64,000 nucleotides of DNA. Source: Escherichia coli. GTDB taxonomy: Bacteria; Pseudomonadota; Gammaproteobacteria; Enterobacterales; Enterobacteriaceae. Positions 6,262 to 62,958 of the stretch are shown here, piece by piece. The notes under the pieces are model-generated. The model was not told where the DNA came from. It ran no database searches and saw only the letters and a program-made list of their open reading frames with translations. A program made the translations under genes and the position numbers. How positions within the stretch are numbered: the stretch's first letter is position 1; each line of letters begins with the position of its first letter. Location: NCBI RefSeq assembly GCF_003790525.1, contig NZ_CP033635.1; one strand, given 5' to 3'.

Positions 6262-6845
6262 TTATTTTTCCCATCGATTTCGCCCACTTTCTTTCGCCCG
6301 GTATAACGCAGCGTCGGCATCTGAAATAATTTGTTCAGCCGTTTTTGCGGGAGCAGAACAGGTAATCCCCTGACTAACCGTAACGAATGCATTAACAGCA
6401 GATGCCTGATGCGGGATAGCTGCCAGTTTAAGTTCTTGCTTCACTCTGGCTGCTACCGTCTCTGCTTCCGGCAATGTTGCATTAAAAAGTATGATGACAA
6501 ACTCTTCGCCACCATAACGGACAACAACATCCTCCGACTGGCGAGTTGAACGCTGTAGAGCGTCGGCAACTTGTATTAGACAACGATCCCCAGCAGGATG
6601 CCCGTAAGTGTCGTTGTAACGTTTAAAAAAATCGACATCCAGCATAATAAGAGCAAATGACCCGCCGTTATCTATCGCGTCGTGTAAGATACTGTTCATT
6701 GCACGTCGGTTTGCTATCCCAGTTAAAGGATCACGATGTGCTAATGCATCAAGGCGATTAATTAACTGGTTGTTATAACTGTTTTGTACCCATGCTTCTT
6801 CAAACCAACGTAACAAAATGAGTCGCCCACCATATAGCGCCAGTG

Positions 6846-6853
6846 AAAAAATA
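6846..6853. repeat. IS1 target-site duplication, left copy (aaaaaata)
   Basis: Same 8-bp sequence directly flanks both IS1 ends. Confidence 0.6.
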
Positions 6854-6868
6854 GGTAATGACTCCAAC

Positions 6869-7372
6869 TTATTGATAGTGTTTTATGTTCAGATAATGCC
6901 CGATGACTTTGTCATGCAGCTCCACCGATTTTGAGAACGACAGCGACTTCCGTCCCAGCCGTGCCAGGTGCTGCCTCAGATTCAGGTTATGCCGCTCAAT
7001 TCGCTGCGTATATCGCTTGCTGATTACGTGCAGCTTTCCCTTCAGGCGGGATTCATACAGCGGCCAGCCATCCGTCATCCATATCACCACGTCAAAGGGT
7101 GACAGCAGGCTCATAAGACGCCCCAGCGTCGCCATCGTGCGTTCACCGAATACGTGCGCAACAACCGTCTTCCGGAGCCTGTCATACGCGTAAAACAGCC
7201 AGCGCTGGCGCGATTTAGCCCCGACATAGCCCCACTGTTCGTCCATTTCCGCACAGACGATGACGTCACTGCCCGGCTGTATGCGCGAGGTTACCGACTG
7301 CGGCCTGAGTTTTTTAAGTGACGTAAAATCGTGTTGAGGCCAACGCCCATAATGCGGGCTGTTGCCCGGCAT
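6869..7372 (-). CDS. insB: IS1 InsB (catalytic part; InsAB' is made by -1 frameshifting)
   Basis: 167-aa ORF matching IS1 InsB; overlaps insA in the -1 frame as in canonical IS1. Confidence 0.9.
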
Positions 7373-7566
7373 CCAACGCCATTCATGGCCATATCAATGA
7401 TTTTCTGGTGCGTACCGGGTTGAGAAGCGGTGTAAGTGAACTGCAGTTGCCATGTTTTACGGCAGTGAGAGCAGAGATAGCGCTGATGTCCGGCGGTGCT
7501 TTTGCCGTTACGCACCACCCCGTCAGTAGCTGAACAGGAGGGACAGCTGATAGAAACAGAAGCCAC
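7291..7566 (-). CDS. insA: IS1 InsA (transposition repressor / N-terminal part of the transposase)
   Basis: 91-aa [42 protein letters not shown]… is the IS1 InsA sequence. Confidence 0.92.
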
Positions 7567-7621
7567 TGGAGCACCTCAAAAACACCATCATATACTAAAT
7601 CAGTAAGTTGGCAGCATCACC

Positions 7622-7629
7622 AAAAAATA
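7622..7629. repeat. IS1 target-site duplication, right copy (aaaaaata)
   Basis: Same 8-bp sequence directly flanks both IS1 ends. Confidence 0.6.
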
Positions 7630-8142
7630 CACCATACAACAGCAAAATGAATATTGATCTGTTGATTAAGCATAAGACTCGCTATTGGAGTGGTGAACCA
7701 TAAGGGAATGACAAATGCGAGCAATGATGGGGTATGGAAATAAAGTGCGATAACGCCACTAAGCATTAATAATACACATAGTGGATAAGCAAACTGCAGC
7801 GTCCAGTACGCAATAAAGTGATAACTACACCATGACCATAGCAGGCTCAGGGCAACTAATAGCACCTGGATAGGTAATGTTTTTTGCCGAGGGATGAGTA
7901 GTAAACCACTGCAAATCAGCAGAATACCCGTTGCAGATATATCAATAGAATGTATAAGGCTTTTTTCATTTAACCAGGGTGGAGTAAGGTCATTAAACAG
8001 AACACGGCGCAGCAAAATTATCAATGCAAAACTGACATTGATAAAAGCAAACCATGGCAAACTAATCGTCATGCCGCGAATAACCATATCGCGGCGGGTT
8101 TTCCATGAGTGATGCGTTTTTCTTCGTTCAGCCATTTTTTAA

Positions 8143-8181: not shown

Positions 8182-10158
8182 TTATGGTGTCACTATATTG
8201 AACCAAAATTCAAAATTATCCATATAACCTAACAGCTCGTTGAGTTTTTCCGCATTGCCAGTAATTTTGACATCTTCTTTGGCCGTGGCTTCTTTCAGCG
8301 TCTCTTCTTTCAGTACAATTTTGTTCAATACATCACGAGACAGAGTGATAGTGGCATCAGCATCCGAAGCCTCTACACCAGCGGTATGATTGAGAACACC
8401 ATTTTCAAGCTCCACTTTATAGGTGCCGCCATCTTCACCAAAATCGAAATTCAACACGGTTTTGGCATCTGCCGCTTTCTCACCATTAATATGGACGGCA
8501 AGATAATCAAAGAACATCTCCGGCGTCATCGCACGCACGGTGTCTGGGCTGGCAGTATTTGGTGTTGGTAATTTTTGTACGCCATTACGCAATTCCTGTG
8601 CGCCAGTGAGATAGAAATTACGCCACGGCCCAGATTCAGCCTGATAGCCTAACTGCTCAAGCGCATCAGCTTCCAGATTTCTCGCTGCCTGGTTGTTTGG
8701 ATCGGTAAACACCACCTTACTAACAACTTGGGCAACCCAGCGGAAATTACCCTGGTCATAATCCTGTTTGGCTTTCTGTAAAATGGCATCAGCACCGCCC
8801 ATATACTCGACGAATTTTTTTGCGCCTTCTTCTGGCGGCAGTTCATCAAGCGTCGCGGGGTTACCATCAAACCAGCCGAGATAAAGCACGTAAGTTGCTT
8901 TCACGTCATGACTTACCGAACCGTAATAGCCGCGATTCGCCCAGGTATTAGCCAGTGAAGAGGGCAGTTTAAAGTTTGCGGCAATTTCATCACGGGTCAT
9001 CCCTTGATTTGCCATACGCAGAGTTTGATCATTGATGTAACGATACAAATCACGCTGGCTTTTAAGCAGTTTGACCACGTTATCGTTGCCCCAGGTTGGC
9101 CAGTGATGTTGAGCGAGAATAATCTCGGCTTTATCTCCCCATAAATTGAGAGCTTCGTTAATATATTTTGACCACGGCAGCGGTTGGCGAATTTTAGCCC
9201 CACGCAGCGAATAGGTGTTATGAAGGGTGTGCGTGACATCTTCAGCGGTTTCGATCAGTTTCTTTTCTTCAATAAACCACAGCATTTCAGAAGGCGCTTC
9301 AGAGCCTGGCGCCATCAAGAAATCATAGGTCAACCCGTCAATAGTTTCTTTTTGTCCGGTTTTGGTGATGTAGTTAGTAGGAGCAATCAACGTGACCGTT
9401 CCTGCTGAAGTGGTTGTTCCCAGTCCCGCGCCAACCTGGCCTTTAACATCAGGTTTCAATAAGTTGCCATACATATAACTGGCTCGTCGGCTCATCACAT
9501 TGCCAGCCATAATATTTTCGGAAACGGCTTCCTCCAAAAATCCGGCTGGCGCGTAGATTTTAACTTTGCCTGATTTAACGTCAGCTTCATCAATTACGCC
9601 GCGAACACCACCGTAGTGATCGACATGACTGTGTGTGTAGATAACCGCTACTACCGGTTTTTTGTCGCGATTTTTGTAATAGAGATCCATACCCACTTTG
9701 GCTGTTTCTGCTGAAACAAGGGGATCAACGATGGTAATACCCTCTTTGCCTTCAATGATGGTCATATTTGATAGATCGAGATTGCGAATCTGATAGACAC
9801 CTTCAGTTACTTCGAATAACCCGCTGATATTTATCAGTTGCGCCTGACGCCATAAACTTGGATTCACCGTATCAGGGGCTTTATCACCTTCTTTAATAAA
9901 AGCGTATTGTTGTGGATCCCAGATAACATTTCCTTTTTCGCCCTTAATCACGTCTTGAGGGATAGGGGCAACAAAACCTTTATGGGCATCAGTAAAGTCA
10001 GTGTTATCAGAAAACGGCAACTGGTTGTAGAGTAAATTGTTTGCTTGTTGCGTGGCTGCGGTGGCGTCTTTAGGGGCTTCCGCCGCGAGGAGTGGCAAAG
10101 AACTGGTGGTGAATAATCCCGTTATTAGCAGACTTTTAACAATATGATTAAGCTGCAT
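8182..10158 (-). CDS. Secreted metallo-beta-lactamase-fold alkyl/aryl sulfatase (SdsA1/YjcS-like)
   Basis: 658-aa ORF with Sec signal peptide, MBL metal-binding motif (…YTHSHVDHYGG…), then dimerisation and SCP2-like C-terminal regions typical of type III alkylsulfatases. Confidence 0.8.
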   Translation of the reverse strand: MQLNHIVKSLLITGLFTTSSLPLLAAEAPKDATAATQQANNLLYNQLPFSDNTDFTDAHKGFVAPIPQDVIKGEKGNVIWDPQQYAFIKEGDKAPDTVNPSLWRQAQLINISGLFEVTEGVYQIRNLDLSNMTIIEGKEGITIVDPLVSAETAKVGMDLYYKNRDKKPVVAVIYTHSHVDHYGGVRGVIDEADVKSGKVKIYAPAGFLEEAVSENIMAGNVMSRRASYMYGNLLKPDVKGQVGAGLGTTTSAGTVTLIAPTNYITKTGQKETIDGLTYDFLMAPGSEAPSEMLWFIEEKKLIETAEDVTHTLHNTYSLRGAKIRQPLPWSKYINEALNLWGDKAEIILAQHHWPTWGNDNVVKLLKSQRDLYRYINDQTLRMANQGMTRDEIAANFKLPSSLANTWANRGYYGSVSHDVKATYVLYLGWFDGNPATLDELPPEEGAKKFVEYMGGADAILQKAKQDYDQGNFRWVAQVVSKVVFTDPNNQAARNLEADALEQLGYQAESGPWRNFYLTGAQELRNGVQKLPTPNTASPDTVRAMTPEMFFDYLAVHINGEKAADAKTVLNFDFGEDGGTYKVELENGVLNHTAGVEASDADATITLSRDVLNKIVLKEETLKEATAKEDVKITGNAEKLNELLGYMDNFEFWFNIVTP

Positions 10159-48225: not shown

Positions 48226-49761
48226 TTAGTGTTTCTTGTCATTCATCACAATATAGTGTGGTGAACGTGCACGCGGGTGCAGGAAGAAGTGACCTTTTGG
48301 TGCGTTCTGACTGTTGATTGGCTCCAGAGTAACGCCGGTATTCCCTTTGCCTTTACGATCATGAACAGCATAGAGAATAAAGGGCAGGGCAAGTACCACC
48401 AGGAAACTCACGACCAGTAATTCAACATACATATCGGTAGAGTCACCCTGGATGTTATCCGGCGGCAGGAAGGAAACAATAAACGCCATAATTGAAGTCA
48501 GCAGACCGACAATAGCCACGACCAGTTTCACCCCTTTACCACCAGGGATATTAAATGTGCGTTTTAAGTCAGGATGTTTAAGAACCAACACAATGTAGCC
48601 AATAAACAGCATGAAATAAGCACACAGATAAATCACCACCGTCAGTGCCAGTGCGATCAGGAAGGACATGTTGTTACCGCCACCGGTATTGGTGAGGATG
48701 ATCAACGCGATAGAAGTAATCACCAGCTGCGAAATGACCAGCGTTACCGGTACGCCATTTTTGTTCATTTTAGCGAATGCTGCTGGCAGCAGGTTTTTCT
48801 GCGCTGTGACATACATCCCGCGAGAAGGACCAACAATCCAGGAAGCGATTTCCGCCAGAACACCCAGCAACAGCAGTGCGGAGATCACGCGAACCGTCCA
48901 CTCAATTTCCGGTGCCACATGTGACATCAGAACGGTAAAGGTTTGCATTACCCCTGCGGAGAGGTTGATTTCATTACCCGGAATGACCATCGCAATAGAC
49001 AAACCGCCAACAGAGCTTAAGCAGATTGCCGCTACCATCAGCAGTAACATAGCCAGTGGATAGTCGCGCCCGGGGTTGCTCATTTCATTGACGTGGGTTG
49101 CGGAAGCTTCAACGCCCATATAACTCAAAATGAAGGCAACAAATACAACCAGGGTGCCCACTTTAGAGAAGTCAGGGAAGAAGGTCTTCGCATCCATTTC
49201 GATAGCAACGGGGGCACCGGAGTGCAGATAAATAGCCGCTAATGCGATCAAAATAAATGCAGGTAACAGGATACCGGCGAAGAAGCCAACTTTAGCAATG
49301 CGCGCCGTGTATTTCGTGCCACCAAACTGCGTTAATGCCAGCGCCCAAAGAATGATGAGTGCTGCAATAGTTTTGGTAATGGGGTCTTCATTCAGCGCTG
49401 GCCATTTCAGGATGTAGGAGAGTGCCCCTAACACGAAATAGAGCATCGGAATAAAACCAATGGCGATTTGCAGATAACCAAATGAGATCGCTGCAAATCC
49501 CCATCTCGGCCCCAAAGTATTTGATACCCAGGCGAAGACGCCACCTTCTTCCCAGCCGTCGACGGTAGCCATTTCCGCAGCACAAAGTCCCACGGGAATA
49601 AACCATAAAATCCCGCCTAATAGCAGGAAGAAGACTAATGAAAAGCCCGATGTTGCGAAGGTAGGGTATTCATAAACAGCCATTACCATCGATGCCGTTA
49701 TGGCAAAGAATCCGAGTAATGTGAGCTGCTTAGCTTTACCTGTCTGTACTGATGTAGCCAT
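48226..49761 (-). CDS. gadC: Glutamate:GABA antiporter
   Basis: 511-aa APC-family transporter directly downstream of gadB. Confidence 0.92.
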
Positions 49762-49916: not shown

Positions 49917-51317
49917 TCAGGTATGTTTAAAGCTGTTCTGCTGGGCAATACCCTGCAGTTTCGGGTGATCGCTGAGATATTTCAGGGAGGCTTTGTAGTC
50001 TTCCAGCAACAGTTCAGCAAAGTCCATTTCGAAGCCGCGACGACACATAATGCGCATCACCACGATGTCAGTGGCTTCACCGCCGAGAGTGAAGGCCGGA
50101 ACCTGCCAGCCGCGCAGACGCAGACGTTCAGAGAGGTCGTAGAGGGTGTATCCCGGATCTTCACCATCTTTCAGTTTGAAGCAAACCGCCGGGATGCCTT
50201 CGTCCGGGCGACCGGTACAGATAAACTCATACGGTCCCAGTTTGGCGATTTCATCCGCCAGATAAGCGGCAACCTGGTAGGAAGCGTTCTGTACTTTGGT
50301 ATAGCCTTCACGACCGAGGCGCAGGAATTCATAGTACTGTGCAATCACCTGACCCGCCGGGCGGGAGAAGTTGATGGCGAAAGTCCCAATCTGACCGCCG
50401 AGGTAGTCAACGTTGAACACCAGTTCCTGCGGCAGCGCTTCTTCATCACGCCAGATAACCCAGCCGCAGCCCAGCGGAGCCAGACCGAATTTATGGCCTG
50501 AAGCACTGATCGATTTCACACGCGGCAGGCGGAAGTCCCAGACGATATCCGGGGCGACGAACGGTGCCAGGAAGCCACCGCTGGCGGCGTCGATGTGCAT
50601 GTCGATGTCGATACCGGTGTCGGCCTGGAATTTATCCAGCGCATCGTGCAGCGGCTGCGGGAACTCATAGTTACCGGTGTAGGTCACGCCGAAAGTCGGC
50701 ACCACGCCGATGGTATTTTCGTCGCAGGCTTCAATCATGCGTTTCGGGTCCATAAACAACTGACCGGGGCGCATAGGGATCTCACGCAACTCCACATCCC
50801 AGTAGCGGGCGAATTTATGCCAGCAGATTTGCACCGGACCGCACACCAGGTTTGGTTTATCCGTTGGTTTGCCTGCAGCTTCCATACGCTTGCGCCAACG
50901 CCATTTCATCGCCATCCCGCCAAGCATACAGGCCTCGGAAGAACCAATGGTGTTGGTGCCAACGGCCTGACCATTTTTCGGCGCAGGCGCATGCCACAGA
51001 TCGGCAACCATGTTTACGCAACGCAGGTCGATGGCTGCGGATTGCGGATATTCTTCTTTGTCGATCCAGTTTTTGTTAATGGATAAATCCATCAACTTGT
51101 GGACGTTTTCGTCGTCCCAGGTCTGGCAGAAAGTGGCCAGGTTCTGACGAGCGTTGCCATCAAGATATAATTCGTCATTGATAATCTGAAATGCGACATC
51201 GTCGCGCATTTCGTGCAGCGGAAAACGTTTTGATTCTGCGATAGTGGAAATAGACTTTGCACCAAAACGTGAATCGAGTAGTTCCGACCTTAAATCCGTT
51301 ACTTGCTTCTTATCCAT
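49917..51317 (-). CDS. gadB: Glutamate decarboxylase beta (PLP-dependent)
   Basis: 466-aa product from [18 protein letters not shown]…; PLP-lysine context ([10 protein letters not shown]). Confidence 0.92.
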
Positions 51318-51396
51318 TTTAAACTCCTTAAAATGATTGGATCGCATTAAAAAAGTAGGATTTATCGATAAAGTAAGCAAGTGCAAAGGACTCGTG

Positions 51397-51416
51397 TTTA
51401 AATAACAAAATCCTAA
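51397..51416 (-). promoter_or_regulatory. GAD box (GadE/RcsB site) upstream of gadBC
   Basis: Minus-strand sequence ttaggattttgttatttaaa matches the 20-bp GAD box, about 80-100 bp upstream of the gadB ATG. Confidence 0.7.
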
Positions 51417-51678
51417 TGTTATTTATCGCGAGATATTATGCGAATTATATTTTATCATTGAAAATCAATATATTATTGAATTCTTGGGTGGTGGCAAGGT
51501 GTTTTATGCTGTTATTTTTATGCACTTTCTACGCCTCCTGAATTATCACGTAAAAATCAGACCTTAAAATATCACTATTAGCACTCGGCTATTATTTTGA
51601 ACGCATTTATAAAATTATTACATAAAAATGGCGAATATTGCTAAAATCCCCGCCAACGAGGTGTTGACGGGGCTGTTA

Positions 51679-54474
51679 TTATTTTGGCAATAATACTCCG
51701 GTATAGGTATTCACCGGATGAGAAAGATATTGTTTAACGGCAGTGTTAACATTCTCTACCGTCATTTGTTTCAATAATTGCTCCTGCTCAGTCCATGCTG
51801 CAGGATCGTCATATTGAATAAGACTATTTACAATGGTGTTCGCTAATTGTTGAACGCTACGCTGTTGGATATCGAGGCTGCGCTGAACGTTTTGCTGGTA
51901 TTCATTCAGTTCTTGCTCACTGATCCCTTTAGCCAGGCGCTTAACCATCACTTCATTCGCTAACGTTAACAGTTCATCATGTCGTTCTGGTTGACAAGTA
52001 AAAGCCAGCAAATGACTGATATCTTTGGCCTGAGGATCAACCGAGAGGCGAGAAGAAACGCTGTATGCTCCAGATGCCTGTTCACGAATATTAACGCGTA
52101 GATCTTTTGCCAGTGCGACGTTAAAAGCATCGAGCGCCATACGCGTCTCCAGATTTACAGGTGTCCGGGAATCATAACGCTTCCACTGTGAAACCTGTGC
52201 CACAGGTTCATTTTGTTCTTTTACAGTAACCGATGCGTTGTCCGTCGCGCGAGTTAATGGTTTACCTGCGGCTAATGGCGAATCAGAGTGTTTGATTGAT
52301 CCTAAGTAACGCGTAATTAACGCCACGAGTTTGTCTTCTGCGACATTACCGACAATGACAAAGGTGATATCCGCTGGAGATGAAAACAACTGGCGATCGG
52401 CAGCCAGCGCATCTGCGGCAGTAAACTGTGCAATCTGATTTTCTTGCAGTAATTTCGTGCGGTCATCAGCATAGCGCGTCTCATACATCTGCTGGGCGAA
52501 TTTCTCCGCTGGACGCTGGTCGAGCGTTTTCAACGCCTGAATTTGAGCATTTTGTAGCGATGCCCAAATATTATCGTTAATCGTGCTGTGGGTGATTCGC
52601 TGGTTAATCAACTGGAAACCAGGTTCAGGGTTATTAGTCCGCGCGCTAACAGAGAGCAATGTATTCATGCCACTGACTTTACTGCTCATGGTTACCGAGT
52701 TTTCCGCACTCCAGCGTTTCAGGCTGGAAGAGGAGAGTTCACCAACGCCGCTTCCGCTTACTGCTTTATTTGCCAGCGCGATAAGTGATTTTTGCTGCGC
52801 AGGGAAACTTAAATCGCCTTTATTAGATACGGCAGTAATTTGTAGCTTTTGCTCTTCACCCGCGGATTTTGCCAGAATAACCCTGGCACCATTGGAAAGT
52901 GTTAATGATGTCAGATTCTCAGCCAGCGTTTCTTTGCTGCTAATTTCCGCCTGTGGGTCAGCGTCTACTGTTAACGATAAATTTCTGCCTGGGAAGATGT
53001 AAGCCGCCAGCTTTTTGTTGGCGTACTCTTTTTCCAGCGCCAGGATAGCCGCAGGAGACAATGCTTTTTTGGCGGCAACCTCATTGTTTACCATTTGCTC
53101 CCAAAATGCGTCCTGGTTCTTTCTTAACTGCTGCCATTTTTCCGCCAGACTTTGCACGGTAATTTGCTGCCACAGACGTTTCGAAAGTTGATATGTCTCT
53201 TCCGGCGACAAGAACGGCGTATTATTTAATGAGCTGGATGCCAGGCGACTGGTCAGCATACGTAAATCACGCTCAGCTTGCTGATCAACCGCATTTTTCA
53301 GCCAGGTAAGGCGGGTAGATTTAACATCATCGAGTTCTTCAGCAGAAAAGCCATGCTGATCAATGGTTGCCAACTCTGCCATTAATGCATTCGCAGCATC
53401 CTGCATATTATCGTCTTGTGCATTTACACGGAAAAACAGCGACTGATAATCGGGTGCAATTTTGACGCTGCGCGCAGTGCCGCCAGAAATAGTCTTCAAC
53501 TCGCCCGACTGTATGCGTTCTTGCAGACGTTGGTTGAACAGCTGAACTAACATGCTCCATTCAGCTTGTTCGATAAAGCTTTGCTCATCGCTCACTTGCA
53601 CCATTGGCAGGCGATAATAGAGTGCGATGCCGTTCACCCGGTTTTCTTTATCATTGATGATATTAAAGCGCAGGTGGTTTTCGGCTTTTGTCGGCCAGAC
53701 GCGATTTTCAGCTGCTTTGTTAGCCGGAAGCTTACTTAAATTATCCTTTATCAGCGCCAGCGCTTCTTTACTGTCGATATCGCCGACCACAATAAAGGTC
53801 ATATTATTTGGTTGATACCAGCGTTGATAAAATTGGCGCAATTGTGCCGGTGTGACCGTGGCGACGGTATCCATCAGGCCGATAGGTTCACGGTCTAAAT
53901 TACGGGTATTTGCCAGCAGGAAAGGGCGGCGCGCCTGAGAGGTGCGCCATTTTGCATCCTGATGGGCACGCCATTCCTCAGTAATTACGCCACGTTCAGC
54001 GTCTACTTCGAGTTTTTCAAAGGTTGCGGCATTACTCCATTCACTGAAGATTGCCATCACTTGTTGCAGATTTTGTTTCTGCGTAGTCGGCAAACTCACC
54101 TGATACACTGTTTCGTCATAGCTGGTATAGGCATTAACATCGCGACCAAAACGAAGGCCCATTGACTCAAATGTTTCGATGACTTTATTACCCGGCCATG
54201 TTTTTGTGCCGTTAAACATCATATGTTCTACAAAATGAGCCACGCCGCGCTCATTGTCCTCTTCCTGCAATGAACCGGTATGAATTTGCAGCCATAAATT
54301 TACCTGATCCTTTGGTTGAGCATGCGGATAAATCAGATATCGCAAGCCATTGTCCAGTTGCCCGGTAATTAACTTTTCATCCTGCGGTAAGGCGGCGGCA
54401 ATCAGTCGCCCGGGGAGCAACAGAGTTGCCACTAACGTCAGTAAGAAACAGAGGTTTCTCATAATTATCTCCAT
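51679..54474 (-). CDS. pqqL: Periplasmic M16-family zinc metallopeptidase
   Basis: 931-aa ORF with signal peptide and inverzincin motif HFVEH…E (…GVAHFVEHMMFNGT…). Confidence 0.9.
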   Translation of the reverse strand: MEIIMRNLCFLLTLVATLLLPGRLIAAALPQDEKLITGQLDNGLRYLIYPHAQPKDQVNLWLQIHTGSLQEEDNERGVAHFVEHMMFNGTKTWPGNKVIETFESMGLRFGRDVNAYTSYDETVYQVSLPTTQKQNLQQVMAIFSEWSNAATFEKLEVDAERGVITEEWRAHQDAKWRTSQARRPFLLANTRNLDREPIGLMDTVATVTPAQLRQFYQRWYQPNNMTFIVVGDIDSKEALALIKDNLSKLPANKAAENRVWPTKAENHLRFNIINDKENRVNGIALYYRLPMVQVSDEQSFIEQAEWSMLVQLFNQRLQERIQSGELKTISGGTARSVKIAPDYQSLFFRVNAQDDNMQDAANALMAELATIDQHGFSAEELDDVKSTRLTWLKNAVDQQAERDLRMLTSRLASSSLNNTPFLSPEETYQLSKRLWQQITVQSLAEKWQQLRKNQDAFWEQMVNNEVAAKKALSPAAILALEKEYANKKLAAYIFPGRNLSLTVDADPQAEISSKETLAENLTSLTLSNGARVILAKSAGEEQKLQITAVSNKGDLSFPAQQKSLIALANKAVSGSGVGELSSSSLKRWSAENSVTMSSKVSGMNTLLSVSARTNNPEPGFQLINQRITHSTINDNIWASLQNAQIQALKTLDQRPAEKFAQQMYETRYADDRTKLLQENQIAQFTAADALAADRQLFSSPADITFVIVGNVAEDKLVALITRYLGSIKHSDSPLAAGKPLTRATDNASVTVKEQNEPVAQVSQWKRYDSRTPVNLETRMALDAFNVALAKDLRVNIREQASGAYSVSSRLSVDPQAKDISHLLAFTCQPERHDELLTLANEVMVKRLAKGISEQELNEYQQNVQRSLDIQQRSVQQLANTIVNSLIQYDDPAAWTEQEQLLKQMTVENVNTAVKQYLSHPVNTYTGVLLPK

Positions 54475-60113: not shown

Positions 60114-61796
60114 TTATTTCGCTTCGCTTAGTGCTTTCTTGATATTGTTAAACTTCTCCTGATTTACCTCGCTAAGTGGTGGTTGGCTGCTGTCGATAAA
60201 CTCTCTTACCACGCCTTGCATCTCTTTAACGACCTGCGGATTGGCGGCGGCAAGGTTATCTTTTTGCTGTAGATCCGTCAGTTTGTATAGACCTAACTGA
60301 TTGTTTTCTACTGTATAGACAAGCGAATAATCGTTATTTCTTACCGTATAAGAGAATTGGCTTAAATCCTCGGTGTTGGGGTTATGCGGGTAATCGTCTG
60401 ACTGATGGCGGACAAATTTGTGGTAATTATCCCAGAATGGAATATTTTCCTCGTCAAACCAGTGAGAATAAGAGGTTATCCAGGTCAGATTTTTATGTGG
60501 CTCGCCTTGTTTCTTATCTTGCAACCACGGCAGCAAGGAAACGCCATCCAGCTTAAGGTCTTTTGGAATGCTGATATCGGCTGCATCAAGAGCTGTCGGG
60601 TAGAAATCCATTGCGGAAATCAGCTTGTCATAATTACCGGGTTGAAGTTTTCCTTTCCACCACATAAACATTGGGGTGTGAGTACCGCCAGGATAGGTCT
60701 GACTCTTATAGCCTTTTTGCGCCCCGTTCAGCGGCAGAGGACCATCGATAACCGCACCATTATCGGAGGTAAAGAGAATAATAGTATTGTCATACTGTCC
60801 GTTTTTCTTCAGTTGTTCGAGAATGCGTTTTACACCCTGATCAACAGAATAAACGGAAGCGTAGTAGTTATCTGCTGTTTGACTACCGGTATTAAATTGC
60901 TTCTGATATTGCTCCGGTGCAGGATTATCATTTGGCAGGTGCGGAGCATTATAAGCCAGGTAAAGCATAAAAGGCTGGTCAAGTGTTTTGGCACGATCAA
61001 CAACGCCAATTGCCTCATCGGTTAACTGATCGCTGATATAACCTTTTGCGGGGACGCGTTCACGGTTTTTGAACAGTGAAGGGGAGTTGTAATATGCCGT
61101 TCCTGCAGCGTGGAATCCCATAAAGTAATCAAAGCCACGGTTTTGAGGTTGCCATTCTTCCGCAGAAAATGTGGTGAAGTTGTCATGATAGTCACGCGTT
61201 TGTTTATCTTCCGGTACCGGCACATTACTGATTTTTGACAAGTGCCATTTACCTACTGCTGCAGTGTAATAACCATGATTCTGGAATAATTCAGGCAAGA
61301 AAGTTTCTGTTAGCGGAATACCATCCTGAGCATCGGTATTGGAATAGACACCAAAGCGGGCGGGCGCTCGACCGGTCATTATTGCAGCGCGGGAGGGGCC
61401 GGAAACACCGTGCGCCACATAGCCGTTAGTAAAACGCACGCCTTCATCCATTAATGAAAGGAGCGTCGGCGTTGATTTTTGCGCAGCTTCAATGGCTTTA
61501 TCTATCCCTATTTTGTAGGTATCGACAACTTCACGATTTTCCATTGTTTTTGGGTCAAAAGATCCCTTATCAAAAGGAAGTTGTCCATAACCAAGATCAT
61601 CCATGGTCAGTACGATAATATTTGGCTTTCCTTTGGTACTGTATTCAGTCGGCGTAAAGTCTGAGAAAGCAACGTTTGTTTTGGTTGCTTTCAGCTTTAC
61701 ATCATCTGCCGCATGAGCAGCAAATGCAGCCATACCAGATGCCAGTATCAAAGATATCGAGGTACTTACGACACTTTTCTTTAATGCAGACTTCAT
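60114..61796 (-). CDS. ydeN: Secreted Ser-type sulfatase
   Basis: 560-aa product from MKSALKKSVVSTSI… (signal peptide); sulfatase signature S-x-P-x-R present (…HGVSGPSRAAIMTGR…). Confidence 0.88.
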   Translation of the reverse strand: MKSALKKSVVSTSISLILASGMAAFAAHAADDVKLKATKTNVAFSDFTPTEYSTKGKPNIIVLTMDDLGYGQLPFDKGSFDPKTMENREVVDTYKIGIDKAIEAAQKSTPTLLSLMDEGVRFTNGYVAHGVSGPSRAAIMTGRAPARFGVYSNTDAQDGIPLTETFLPELFQNHGYYTAAVGKWHLSKISNVPVPEDKQTRDYHDNFTTFSAEEWQPQNRGFDYFMGFHAAGTAYYNSPSLFKNRERVPAKGYISDQLTDEAIGVVDRAKTLDQPFMLYLAYNAPHLPNDNPAPEQYQKQFNTGSQTADNYYASVYSVDQGVKRILEQLKKNGQYDNTIILFTSDNGAVIDGPLPLNGAQKGYKSQTYPGGTHTPMFMWWKGKLQPGNYDKLISAMDFYPTALDAADISIPKDLKLDGVSLLPWLQDKKQGEPHKNLTWITSYSHWFDEENIPFWDNYHKFVRHQSDDYPHNPNTEDLSQFSYTVRNNDYSLVYTVENNQLGLYKLTDLQQKDNLAAANPQVVKEMQGVVREFIDSSQPPLSEVNQEKFNNIKKALSEAK

Positions 61797-62196
61797 AAAT
61801 GTTCCTCTTCTTATTGTACTTAATTCCAAAGTAATTTTACGAAGAGAAATAAGTGGATGTAAGTGAAGTGAGTCACATAAAGAGATAGCAGATTTAGCTA
61901 AAAAAGGGAAATAACAGTCCATAAAGCGTTGACATTACTTTCTGTTCTACTAAGTAATTTCTCGCCGATAAACAACTAATCTATTGATATTTAATAAATT
62001 ATTGCATTTTAATGACAAAATGCCGAATTGAGATCATAAATAATCATGCAACAGGTTATGCAAATGCATAAATATGTGATGAATGTCACTTATTTATTTC
62101 AAGAAATATATCGCCTAAAAACAACGCGGGGCAGGAAATGGCTGCCCCATTTAATTCTTACGTAGCGTGTGTGGTTGACTACTCGTTAGCAAATAA

Positions 62197-62958
62197 TCAA
62201 ATAGCTAAAGCACTCATCGTGTTGTCCGTGTTCATACCGGTGTGCCTTTGACAACGGTACTCCTTCGAAACTCTCTTCGGACTGTTGCCGAAATGTTTGC
62301 GGAACGCATAAATAAAATAAGATGTACTCGCATAACCACATTGTTCGGCAATTTTATTGACTGAACCTTCTACGCGTATCAAATTTTTTGCGTGCTGCAT
62401 TCTGGCATCTAAAAGAATCTGTGAGAATGTCGTTTGCTCTTGCTTTAGTTTTTTCTTCAACAGGCTTTCACTGATGTACAGGCAGTCACAAATATCTTTC
62501 AGCTTCCATGGGTGCGCCAGCTTCATGTTGACAATATTTCTCACTTTCCCGGAAACGGATAGCACACCGTTAGTTAATAGTGTAATGAAACCTTTGCATG
62601 CGGCAAAAATAGACAGGCAAGAAAAAAGCAAAAGTTCTGAAAAGTTATGATGATTGCGTTCTTCCGAGTTGAGATAAGCAATCATTTCATTAAGCAATCC
62701 CGTCGGTACATTTGAAGCACGTAAAAACTTCGCAGGAACAGGCACCGTCACTGTCTGGATGTTAGTGCATTGTAGATATTTTTTAATGGTGTTTTCATTA
62801 AATCCGATTTCTTTGAAATGCCGCTCATAAGGTTCAAAATGCGTACGAACAGCGTTATCTACCATCAGGATCTCGCCGTCAGAGAAGGCGTAATCTTTAT
62901 CTAAAATGTTAGCGTTGAAGGCATGATGAATAAATATAACAGAACAAACGAGCGACAT
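62197..62958 (-). CDS. ydeO: AraC-family acid-resistance regulator
   Basis: 253-aa ORF with C-terminal AraC HTH; upstream neighbour safA. Confidence 0.9.
   Translation of the reverse strand: MSLVCSVIFIHHAFNANILDKDYAFSDGEILMVDNAVRTHFEPYERHFKEIGFNENTIKKYLQCTNIQTVTVPVPAKFLRASNVPTGLLNEMIAYLNSEERNHHNFSELLLFSCLSIFAACKGFITLLTNGVLSVSGKVRNIVNMKLAHPWKLKDICDCLYISESLLKKKLKQEQTTFSQILLDARMQHAKNLIRVEGSVNKIAEQCGYASTSYFIYAFRKHFGNSPKRVSKEYRCQRHTGMNTDNTMSALAI

Follow-up and report, generated by a model that had tools for sequence, protein, structure and literature searches.

An exact copy of the 20-bp GAD box upstream of gadB raises the question of whether this is the site through which the main acid-resistance operon is switched on in this strain, and how much an unaltered box can say about control by GadE. 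In the 64-kb window, which is the whole stretch of E. coli DNA that was analysed, the 20-mer is the canonical GAD box and the upstream activator site of the E. coli gadBC promoter. It is a textbook element in its usual place, shared by ~99% of E. coli genomes, and as such it is already known. The full reading, in which the gadBC GAD box is a site for the GadE-RcsB heterodimer that directly activates the acid-resistance operon, is given a probability of about 93%.

The GAD box and the gadB core promoter

A motif search of the window found the 20-mer TTAGGATTTTGTTATTTAAA on the minus strand at 51397-51416, with 20 of 20 bases and 0 mismatches. Neither strand of the 64 kb has a second match, even with up to 3 mismatches allowed, a stringency at which dinucleotide-preserving shuffles gave a mean of 0.03 chance matches. 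None of the three G residues in the 20-mer is altered in the window; PMC2887963 describes the M1 mutant as a G-to-C change in the box, and the conserved G as critical for binding of the GadE-RcsB heterodimer. The box has the same orientation as gadB and lies 80-99 nt upstream of its ATG (A at 51317). An earlier note on this DNA had placed an exact GAD box on the minus strand about 80-100 bp before the gadB start, and both the sequence and the distance were borne out.

The 20-bp box was reportedly defined by Castanie-Cornet and Foster in 2001 as the block common to the gadA and gadBC promoters. The earlier note had also called the sequence an exact match to the consensus; the match itself holds, but the statement is near-circular, as it is in the gadA and gadBC promoters that the archetypal copies are found (PMC2887963). 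Since the printed consensus equals the gadA/gadBC sequence and the full 20-mer is limited to those two promoters, 'canonical' means that the sequence is that of the reference gadB promoter, rather than that an independent model was matched.

A check against a weight matrix of GadE sites, which had been asked for earlier, did not recover the box: the stand-in used, the printed ChIP-exo consensus TTARGAWWWWAAATA, missed it at up to 2 mismatches and disagrees with its right half. In the five K-12 GadE peaks that were extracted, the shared information was essentially TTAGGA plus an AT-rich tract, so a matrix test has little to offer on top of the exact match. The peak at gadA contains the same 20-mer as the window. 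The K-12 GadE ChIP-exo sites of hdeD, yhiM and gadE have the left core TTAGGA and the AT-rich tract as in the box, but depart from the 20-mer by 5, 8 and 9 bases, respectively, and the full box was found only at gadA and gadB among the K-12 GadE sites compared. The loose pattern TTAGGAWWWWWWWW, searched with up to 1 mismatch, showed no enrichment in the window (4 found, 5.4 expected). Compared with RcsB and RcsAB boxes (NarL/FixJ-type sites), the GAD box has no RcsB half-site in its right half and, unlike them, needs GadE for binding at low RcsB concentration.

On the minus strand, the promoter reads ATAAATAACA-TTAGGATTTTGTTATTTAAA-CACGAGTCCTTTGCAC-TTGCTT-ACTTTATCGATAAATCC-TACTTT-TTTAATGCGATCCAATCATTTTAAGGAGTTTAAA-ATG GAT AAG AAG CAA GTA, with 16 bp between the GAD box and the -35 hexamer TTGCTT, 17 bp between this and the -10 hexamer TACTTT, and a start ~27 nt before the ATG (Table 1). 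In gadA and gadBC, the GAD box was described as lying 16 bp upstream of the -35 and centred 63 bp upstream of the starts (PMC2887963). The latter distance would put the start here at 51343-51344, and the centre of the K-12 ChIP-exo peak, at -62.5 from the start, would put it at 51345. With the K-12 start transferred, the centre of the box falls at -61.5 to -62.5, which is the published geometry.

Both TTGCTT (compared with TTGACA) and TACTTT agree with the consensus at 3 of 6 positions. A scan for consensus sigma-70 promoters, with at least 4/6 matches per hexamer and a spacing of 16-18 nt, missed the gadB promoter because each of its hexamers has just 3/6 and falls below this threshold. The 3 other promoter sites reported by the scan were set aside as unrelated to gadB and at chance level (3 found, 2.1 expected). 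The weak hexamers fit a promoter that depends on an activator and is associated with RpoS in vivo (PMC2887963; PMC4918353 supplement). The RcsB box reads CGATAAATCCTA in the window and GGATAAATCCTA in a gadA promoter, with GATAAATCCTAC kept between the two; its left end is C in gadB and G in gadA, in agreement with PMC2887963.

Table 1. Features of the gadBC locus in the 64-kb window; positions relative to the transcription start use the start mapped in K-12.
Feature	Position	Strand	Remarks
gadC, glutamate/GABA antiporter	48226..49761	-	511 aa, intact frame; TIGR00910 1026.2 bits, full-length
gadB, glutamate decarboxylase	49917..51317	-	466 aa, intact frame; TIGR01788 692.7 bits, cutoff 380.4
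gadB Shine-Dalgarno AAGGAG	51324..51329	-	Kept in all Escherichia gadA and gadB copies
Expected transcription start	51343..51345	-	26-28 nt upstream of ATG; transferred from K-12
-10 hexamer TACTTT	51352..51357	-	17 bp after -35; kept in gadA and other Escherichia species
RcsB box CGATAAATCCTA	51356..51367	-	Boundaries approximate; abuts and overlaps -10; repressive at high RcsB concentration
-35 hexamer TTGCTT	51375..51380	-	16 bp downstream of the box; kept between gadA and gadB
GAD box TTAGGATTTTGTTATTTAAA	51397..51416	-	~-72 to -53; unique exact match
GadX/GadW-type motif AGGTCTGATTTTTACGTGAT	51545..51564	-	~-220 to -201; 19/20 to published degenerate AKGKCTGWTWTTWWYMYVAK
pqqL intrinsic terminator hairpin	51648..51672	-	10-bp stem, then AUUUUAG; upstream limit of the gadBC regulatory region
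Candidate tuning variants			CA, CC or AC at ~-52/-51; linker changes a few bases on; dense variation from ~-113 upstream, in the GadX-bound region

The gadBC operon and its surroundings

GadB and GadC both scored above the curated cutoffs of their families (TIGR01788 and TIGR00910), indicating that a glutamate decarboxylase operon is located downstream of the box. The product starts with MDKKQV, which is the gadB type, while gadA copies begin with MDQKLL. Together with gadC downstream and pqqL upstream, this N-terminus identifies the gene as gadB and not gadA. Over 451 bp (51250-51700), the window has 100% identity to E. coli AR_0077, in which RefSeq annotates gadB, gadC and, upstream, pqqL. 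The window is a piece of the E. coli chromosome: from 10089 onwards its identity to AR_0077 is 99.3%, and its first 10 kb is 100% identical to SMS-3-5-like strains; the annotation of AR_0077 is therefore valid for the gadBC end, and that of SMS-3-5 was used instead for the first 10 kb.

On the far side of the intergenic region, the pqqL terminator has a folding energy of -18.6 kcal/mol (z = -4.58), and 0 of 200 shuffles folded as well. A scan of the whole window with Rfam gave no RNA family between gadB and pqqL. The motif of the GadX/GadW type is the sole match in the window and straddles the transferred K-12 GadX ChIP-exo peaks P6 and P7, yet it is weak evidence, as 27 out of 100 shuffles gave at least one match.

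Other regulators of acid stress and their targets are encoded or represented elsewhere in the window. The promoter region of ydeN is present (60114-61922), and GadX is listed as a ydeN repressor in K-12 ChIP-exo data, so that a further GadEWX regulon member is located here. About 11 kb from gadBC, ydeO (62197-62958, an AraC-type acid-stress regulator of 253 aa), safA (63033-63230) and the start of ydeP all have open reading frames (62197-64000). They belong to the upstream part of the EvgA-YdeO-GadE cascade, which is relevant to whether GadE-dependent control is intact, but does not suffice to establish it.

At the opposite end of the window, the segment 1-10088 (the end of mcbR, pqqU, yncE, ansP, yncG, a GGDEF gene and a sulfatase gene) has no AR_0077 counterpart at the same position. 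A type VI Vgr/Rhs/ISAs1 block takes its place in AR_0077, and the boundary of a variable region lies near 10089. Within this segment, an IS1 (transposase ORF at 6869-7372 on the minus strand, PF03400) interrupts a MASE5-GGDEF diguanylate cyclase gene (region 6262-8135), leaving an N-terminal piece at 7617-8135 and a C-terminal piece at 6262-6867; the SMS-3-5 counterpart is one intact CDS of 349 aa. In addition, fdnG contains the Rfam selenocysteine insertion element SECIS_3 (27599-27657, plus strand, 84.3 bits), as expected for formate dehydrogenase-N.

Conservation of the box and variation beside it

The 30-mer made up of ATAAATAACA and the box (51397-51426) was found as an exact match, counted as at least 28 of 30 bases, in 5364 of the 5426 complete E. 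coli genomes (~99%). Six exact copies of the 30-mer were on plasmid-labelled E. coli records, and these could be real mobilised copies or artefacts of assembly or labelling. When a 42-mer around the box was used, 3649 of the 5387 matching records were exact and 1738 had 1-2 changes. In the five variant strains that were sampled, all of the changes were outside the box, some of them directly adjacent to it and on both sides. The surrounding 451-bp region had at least 99% identity to the window in only 95 of the 5410 records and 90-95% in 3767. The gadB-pqqL intergenic region (51318-51678) is therefore unusually polymorphic, with changes concentrated from ~-113 upstream and close against the invariant box. 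Compared with the gadBC box of K-12 (gadBp), the window has the same 20-mer, the same promoter from the ATG to ~-112 and the same neighbours, pqqL and gadC. The only differences are single nucleotides between ~-113 and the pqqL terminator, giving an overall identity of 97%.

Among 100,044 species representatives, with one genome for each species, the exact 20-mer was present at 11 places. Eight of these were in Escherichia (two representatives named E. coli, E. albertii, E. whittamii and Escherichia sp. E1V33), each copy being 79-80 nt upstream of an ATG of the gadA or gadB type, and it was only in this genus that the exact 20-mer preceded gad genes in this set. The remaining 3 copies were in metagenome-assembled genomes, one from Lentisphaeria and two from Bacteroidales. 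They had no gad context and were rejected as being at about chance level; by our estimate, ~0.5 or more occurrences of a 20-mer are expected by chance in 298 Gb.

Within E. coli, the paralogous gadA promoter in the acid fitness island allows a further comparison. The gadA and gadB promoters have in common the 20-mer, the -35 hexamer, GATAAATCCTAC of the RcsB box followed by the -10, the Shine-Dalgarno sequence and a distance of 79-80 nt from box to ATG, whereas the 16-bp linker, the flanking DNA and all sequence upstream of the box, including the GadX/W region, have diverged. This patchy conservation favours selection acting on the box over a tract of gene conversion.

Proposed binding by GadE and RcsB and the alternative readings

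The evidence that GadE acts at this site comes from K-12, in which the MG1655 box is located at 1572125-1572144 (NC_000913.3). From the ATG to ~-112, the promoter in the window is identical to that of MG1655. Subtracting 1976 bp, which we take to be the offset between the MG1655 genome versions at gadBC, gives 1570149-1570168 in the older coordinates, and when the analogous offset was checked at gadA, the box fell within the gadA ChIP-exo peak. By this transfer of coordinates, the MG1655 box interval is inside the GadE ChIP-exo peak P3 (1570144-1570175), which is listed as an activator site of gadBC at a distance of -62.5 with RpoS marked as yes; its ChIP-exo signal is modest (S/N 2.78) (PMC4918353 supplement). 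Deletion of gadE at pH 5.5 lowered gadB from 2532 to 29 FPKM (log2 -6.44, ~87-fold) and gadC from 1189 to 21 FPKM (log2 -5.85) (PMC4918353 supplement), and deletion of gadX changed gadB and gadC by less than 2-fold (PMC4918353). Occupancy by GadE and dependence of gadBC on GadE would carry over to this strain from these K-12 experiments, which concern the identical sequence.

The biochemistry of the complex was carried out on the gadA copy of the box (PMC2887963): the footprint, gel shifts, point mutants and in vitro transcription all concern the gadA promoter and not gadBC. There, GadE and RcsB protected -50 to -76, the complex on the box contained both proteins, and a G-to-C change in the box abolished binding and GadE-dependent activation. 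The gadA promoter was weak without activator, and its transcription in vitro was activated by purified RNA polymerase with GadE and RcsB. Transferred from this paralogue, the requirement for a heterodimer and the direct activation would also apply to gadBC. GadE (LuxR-type) and RcsB (a response regulator) would bind the GAD box at ~-62 as a heterodimer and directly stimulate RNA polymerase at an otherwise feeble, RpoS-associated promoter with a weak -35. The location at -62 suggests that RNA polymerase may be contacted from a class-I-like position. As an outcome, the glutamate decarboxylase GadB and the antiporter GadC would be switched on for acid resistance.

In the original model, which the earlier note implied, a GadE homodimer would bind the box on its own and RcsB would be dispensable. 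Binding of MBP-GadE to the box was described in earlier reports (refs 8, 21 and 22 in PMC2887963), and ChIP-exo places GadE on the site in vivo while being silent on its partner. However, MBP-GadE free of RcsB neither protected nor shifted the box of the gadA promoter, and the earlier results were ascribed to co-purified RcsB (PMC2887963). In BL21(DE3), whose gadA/B, gadC and gadE match those of MG1655 exactly, the system is also inactive, owing to the absence of rcsB and dsrA (PMC5040553), so binding by GadE alone is improbable, even though the loss of dsrA complicates that strain. Another, not mutually exclusive reading is that the box is a contested site, at which GadE/RcsB displaces H-NS, GadX and GadW from an AT-rich promoter rather than recruiting RNA polymerase. 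The intergenic region is 68% A+T compared with 52% in the whole window, the gad promoters are subject to repression by H-NS, and GadX and GadW are described as competitors at the box in some circumstances (PMC2887963 Fig. 7 legend; PMC6128205); that GadE possibly blocks the binding of repressors has also been raised (PMC4918353). Displacement as the main mode of action is nevertheless unlikely, as RNA polymerase, GadE and RcsB activate gadA in vitro without H-NS (PMC2887963), and the effect of the gadX deletion on gadB was below 2-fold versus more than 50-fold for gadE. Displacement of a silencer and stimulation of RNA polymerase by GadE/RcsB can occur side by side.

The identity of the box between gadA and gadB could also be explained by gene conversion between the paralogues instead of selection on a binding site, and the 5' coding regions and 5' UTRs of the two genes are indeed similar enough to be compatible with conversion tracts. 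This is very improbable, as the divergence of the linker and upstream DNA around a box matching at 20/20 leaves no continuous tract, the polymorphisms of the five sampled E. coli strains flank the box directly on both sides without entering it, and E. albertii, E. whittamii and Escherichia sp. E1V33 have retained the box despite differing flanks. A functionless chance match in AT-rich DNA, for which the base composition of the region and the three copies outside gad contexts in unrelated metagenome-assembled genomes could be cited, has a negligible probability. The shuffles rarely produced a match even with 3 mismatches, and the position, orientation and spacing equal those of the experimentally defined site; together with the ~99% conservation across E. 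coli, this refutes a chance origin.

The earlier note had concluded that GadE-dependent control is intact here. For the cis element, core promoter and RcsB box, as well as the reading frames of gadB and gadC, this stands, but it goes too far for the remainder, as GadE needs RcsB and, according to the annotation, neither gadE nor rcsB is in the 64-kb window. Because the box is bound by the heterodimer and both genes are outside the window, only the cis side can be called intact. An intact operator is uninformative on the trans half of the system (GadE, RcsB, RpoS and DsrA), whose genes lie in other parts of the genome and are known to be defective in certain laboratory lineages.

To summarise, the main E. 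coli acid-resistance operon has its standard cis-regulatory wiring in this strain, a finding useful only as annotation. The variation between lineages directly beside the box and in the GadX-bound upstream region could, although we consider this rather doubtful, tune the expression of gadBC, in which case the promoter may be a place where the regulation of acid resistance undergoes micro-evolution in E. coli.
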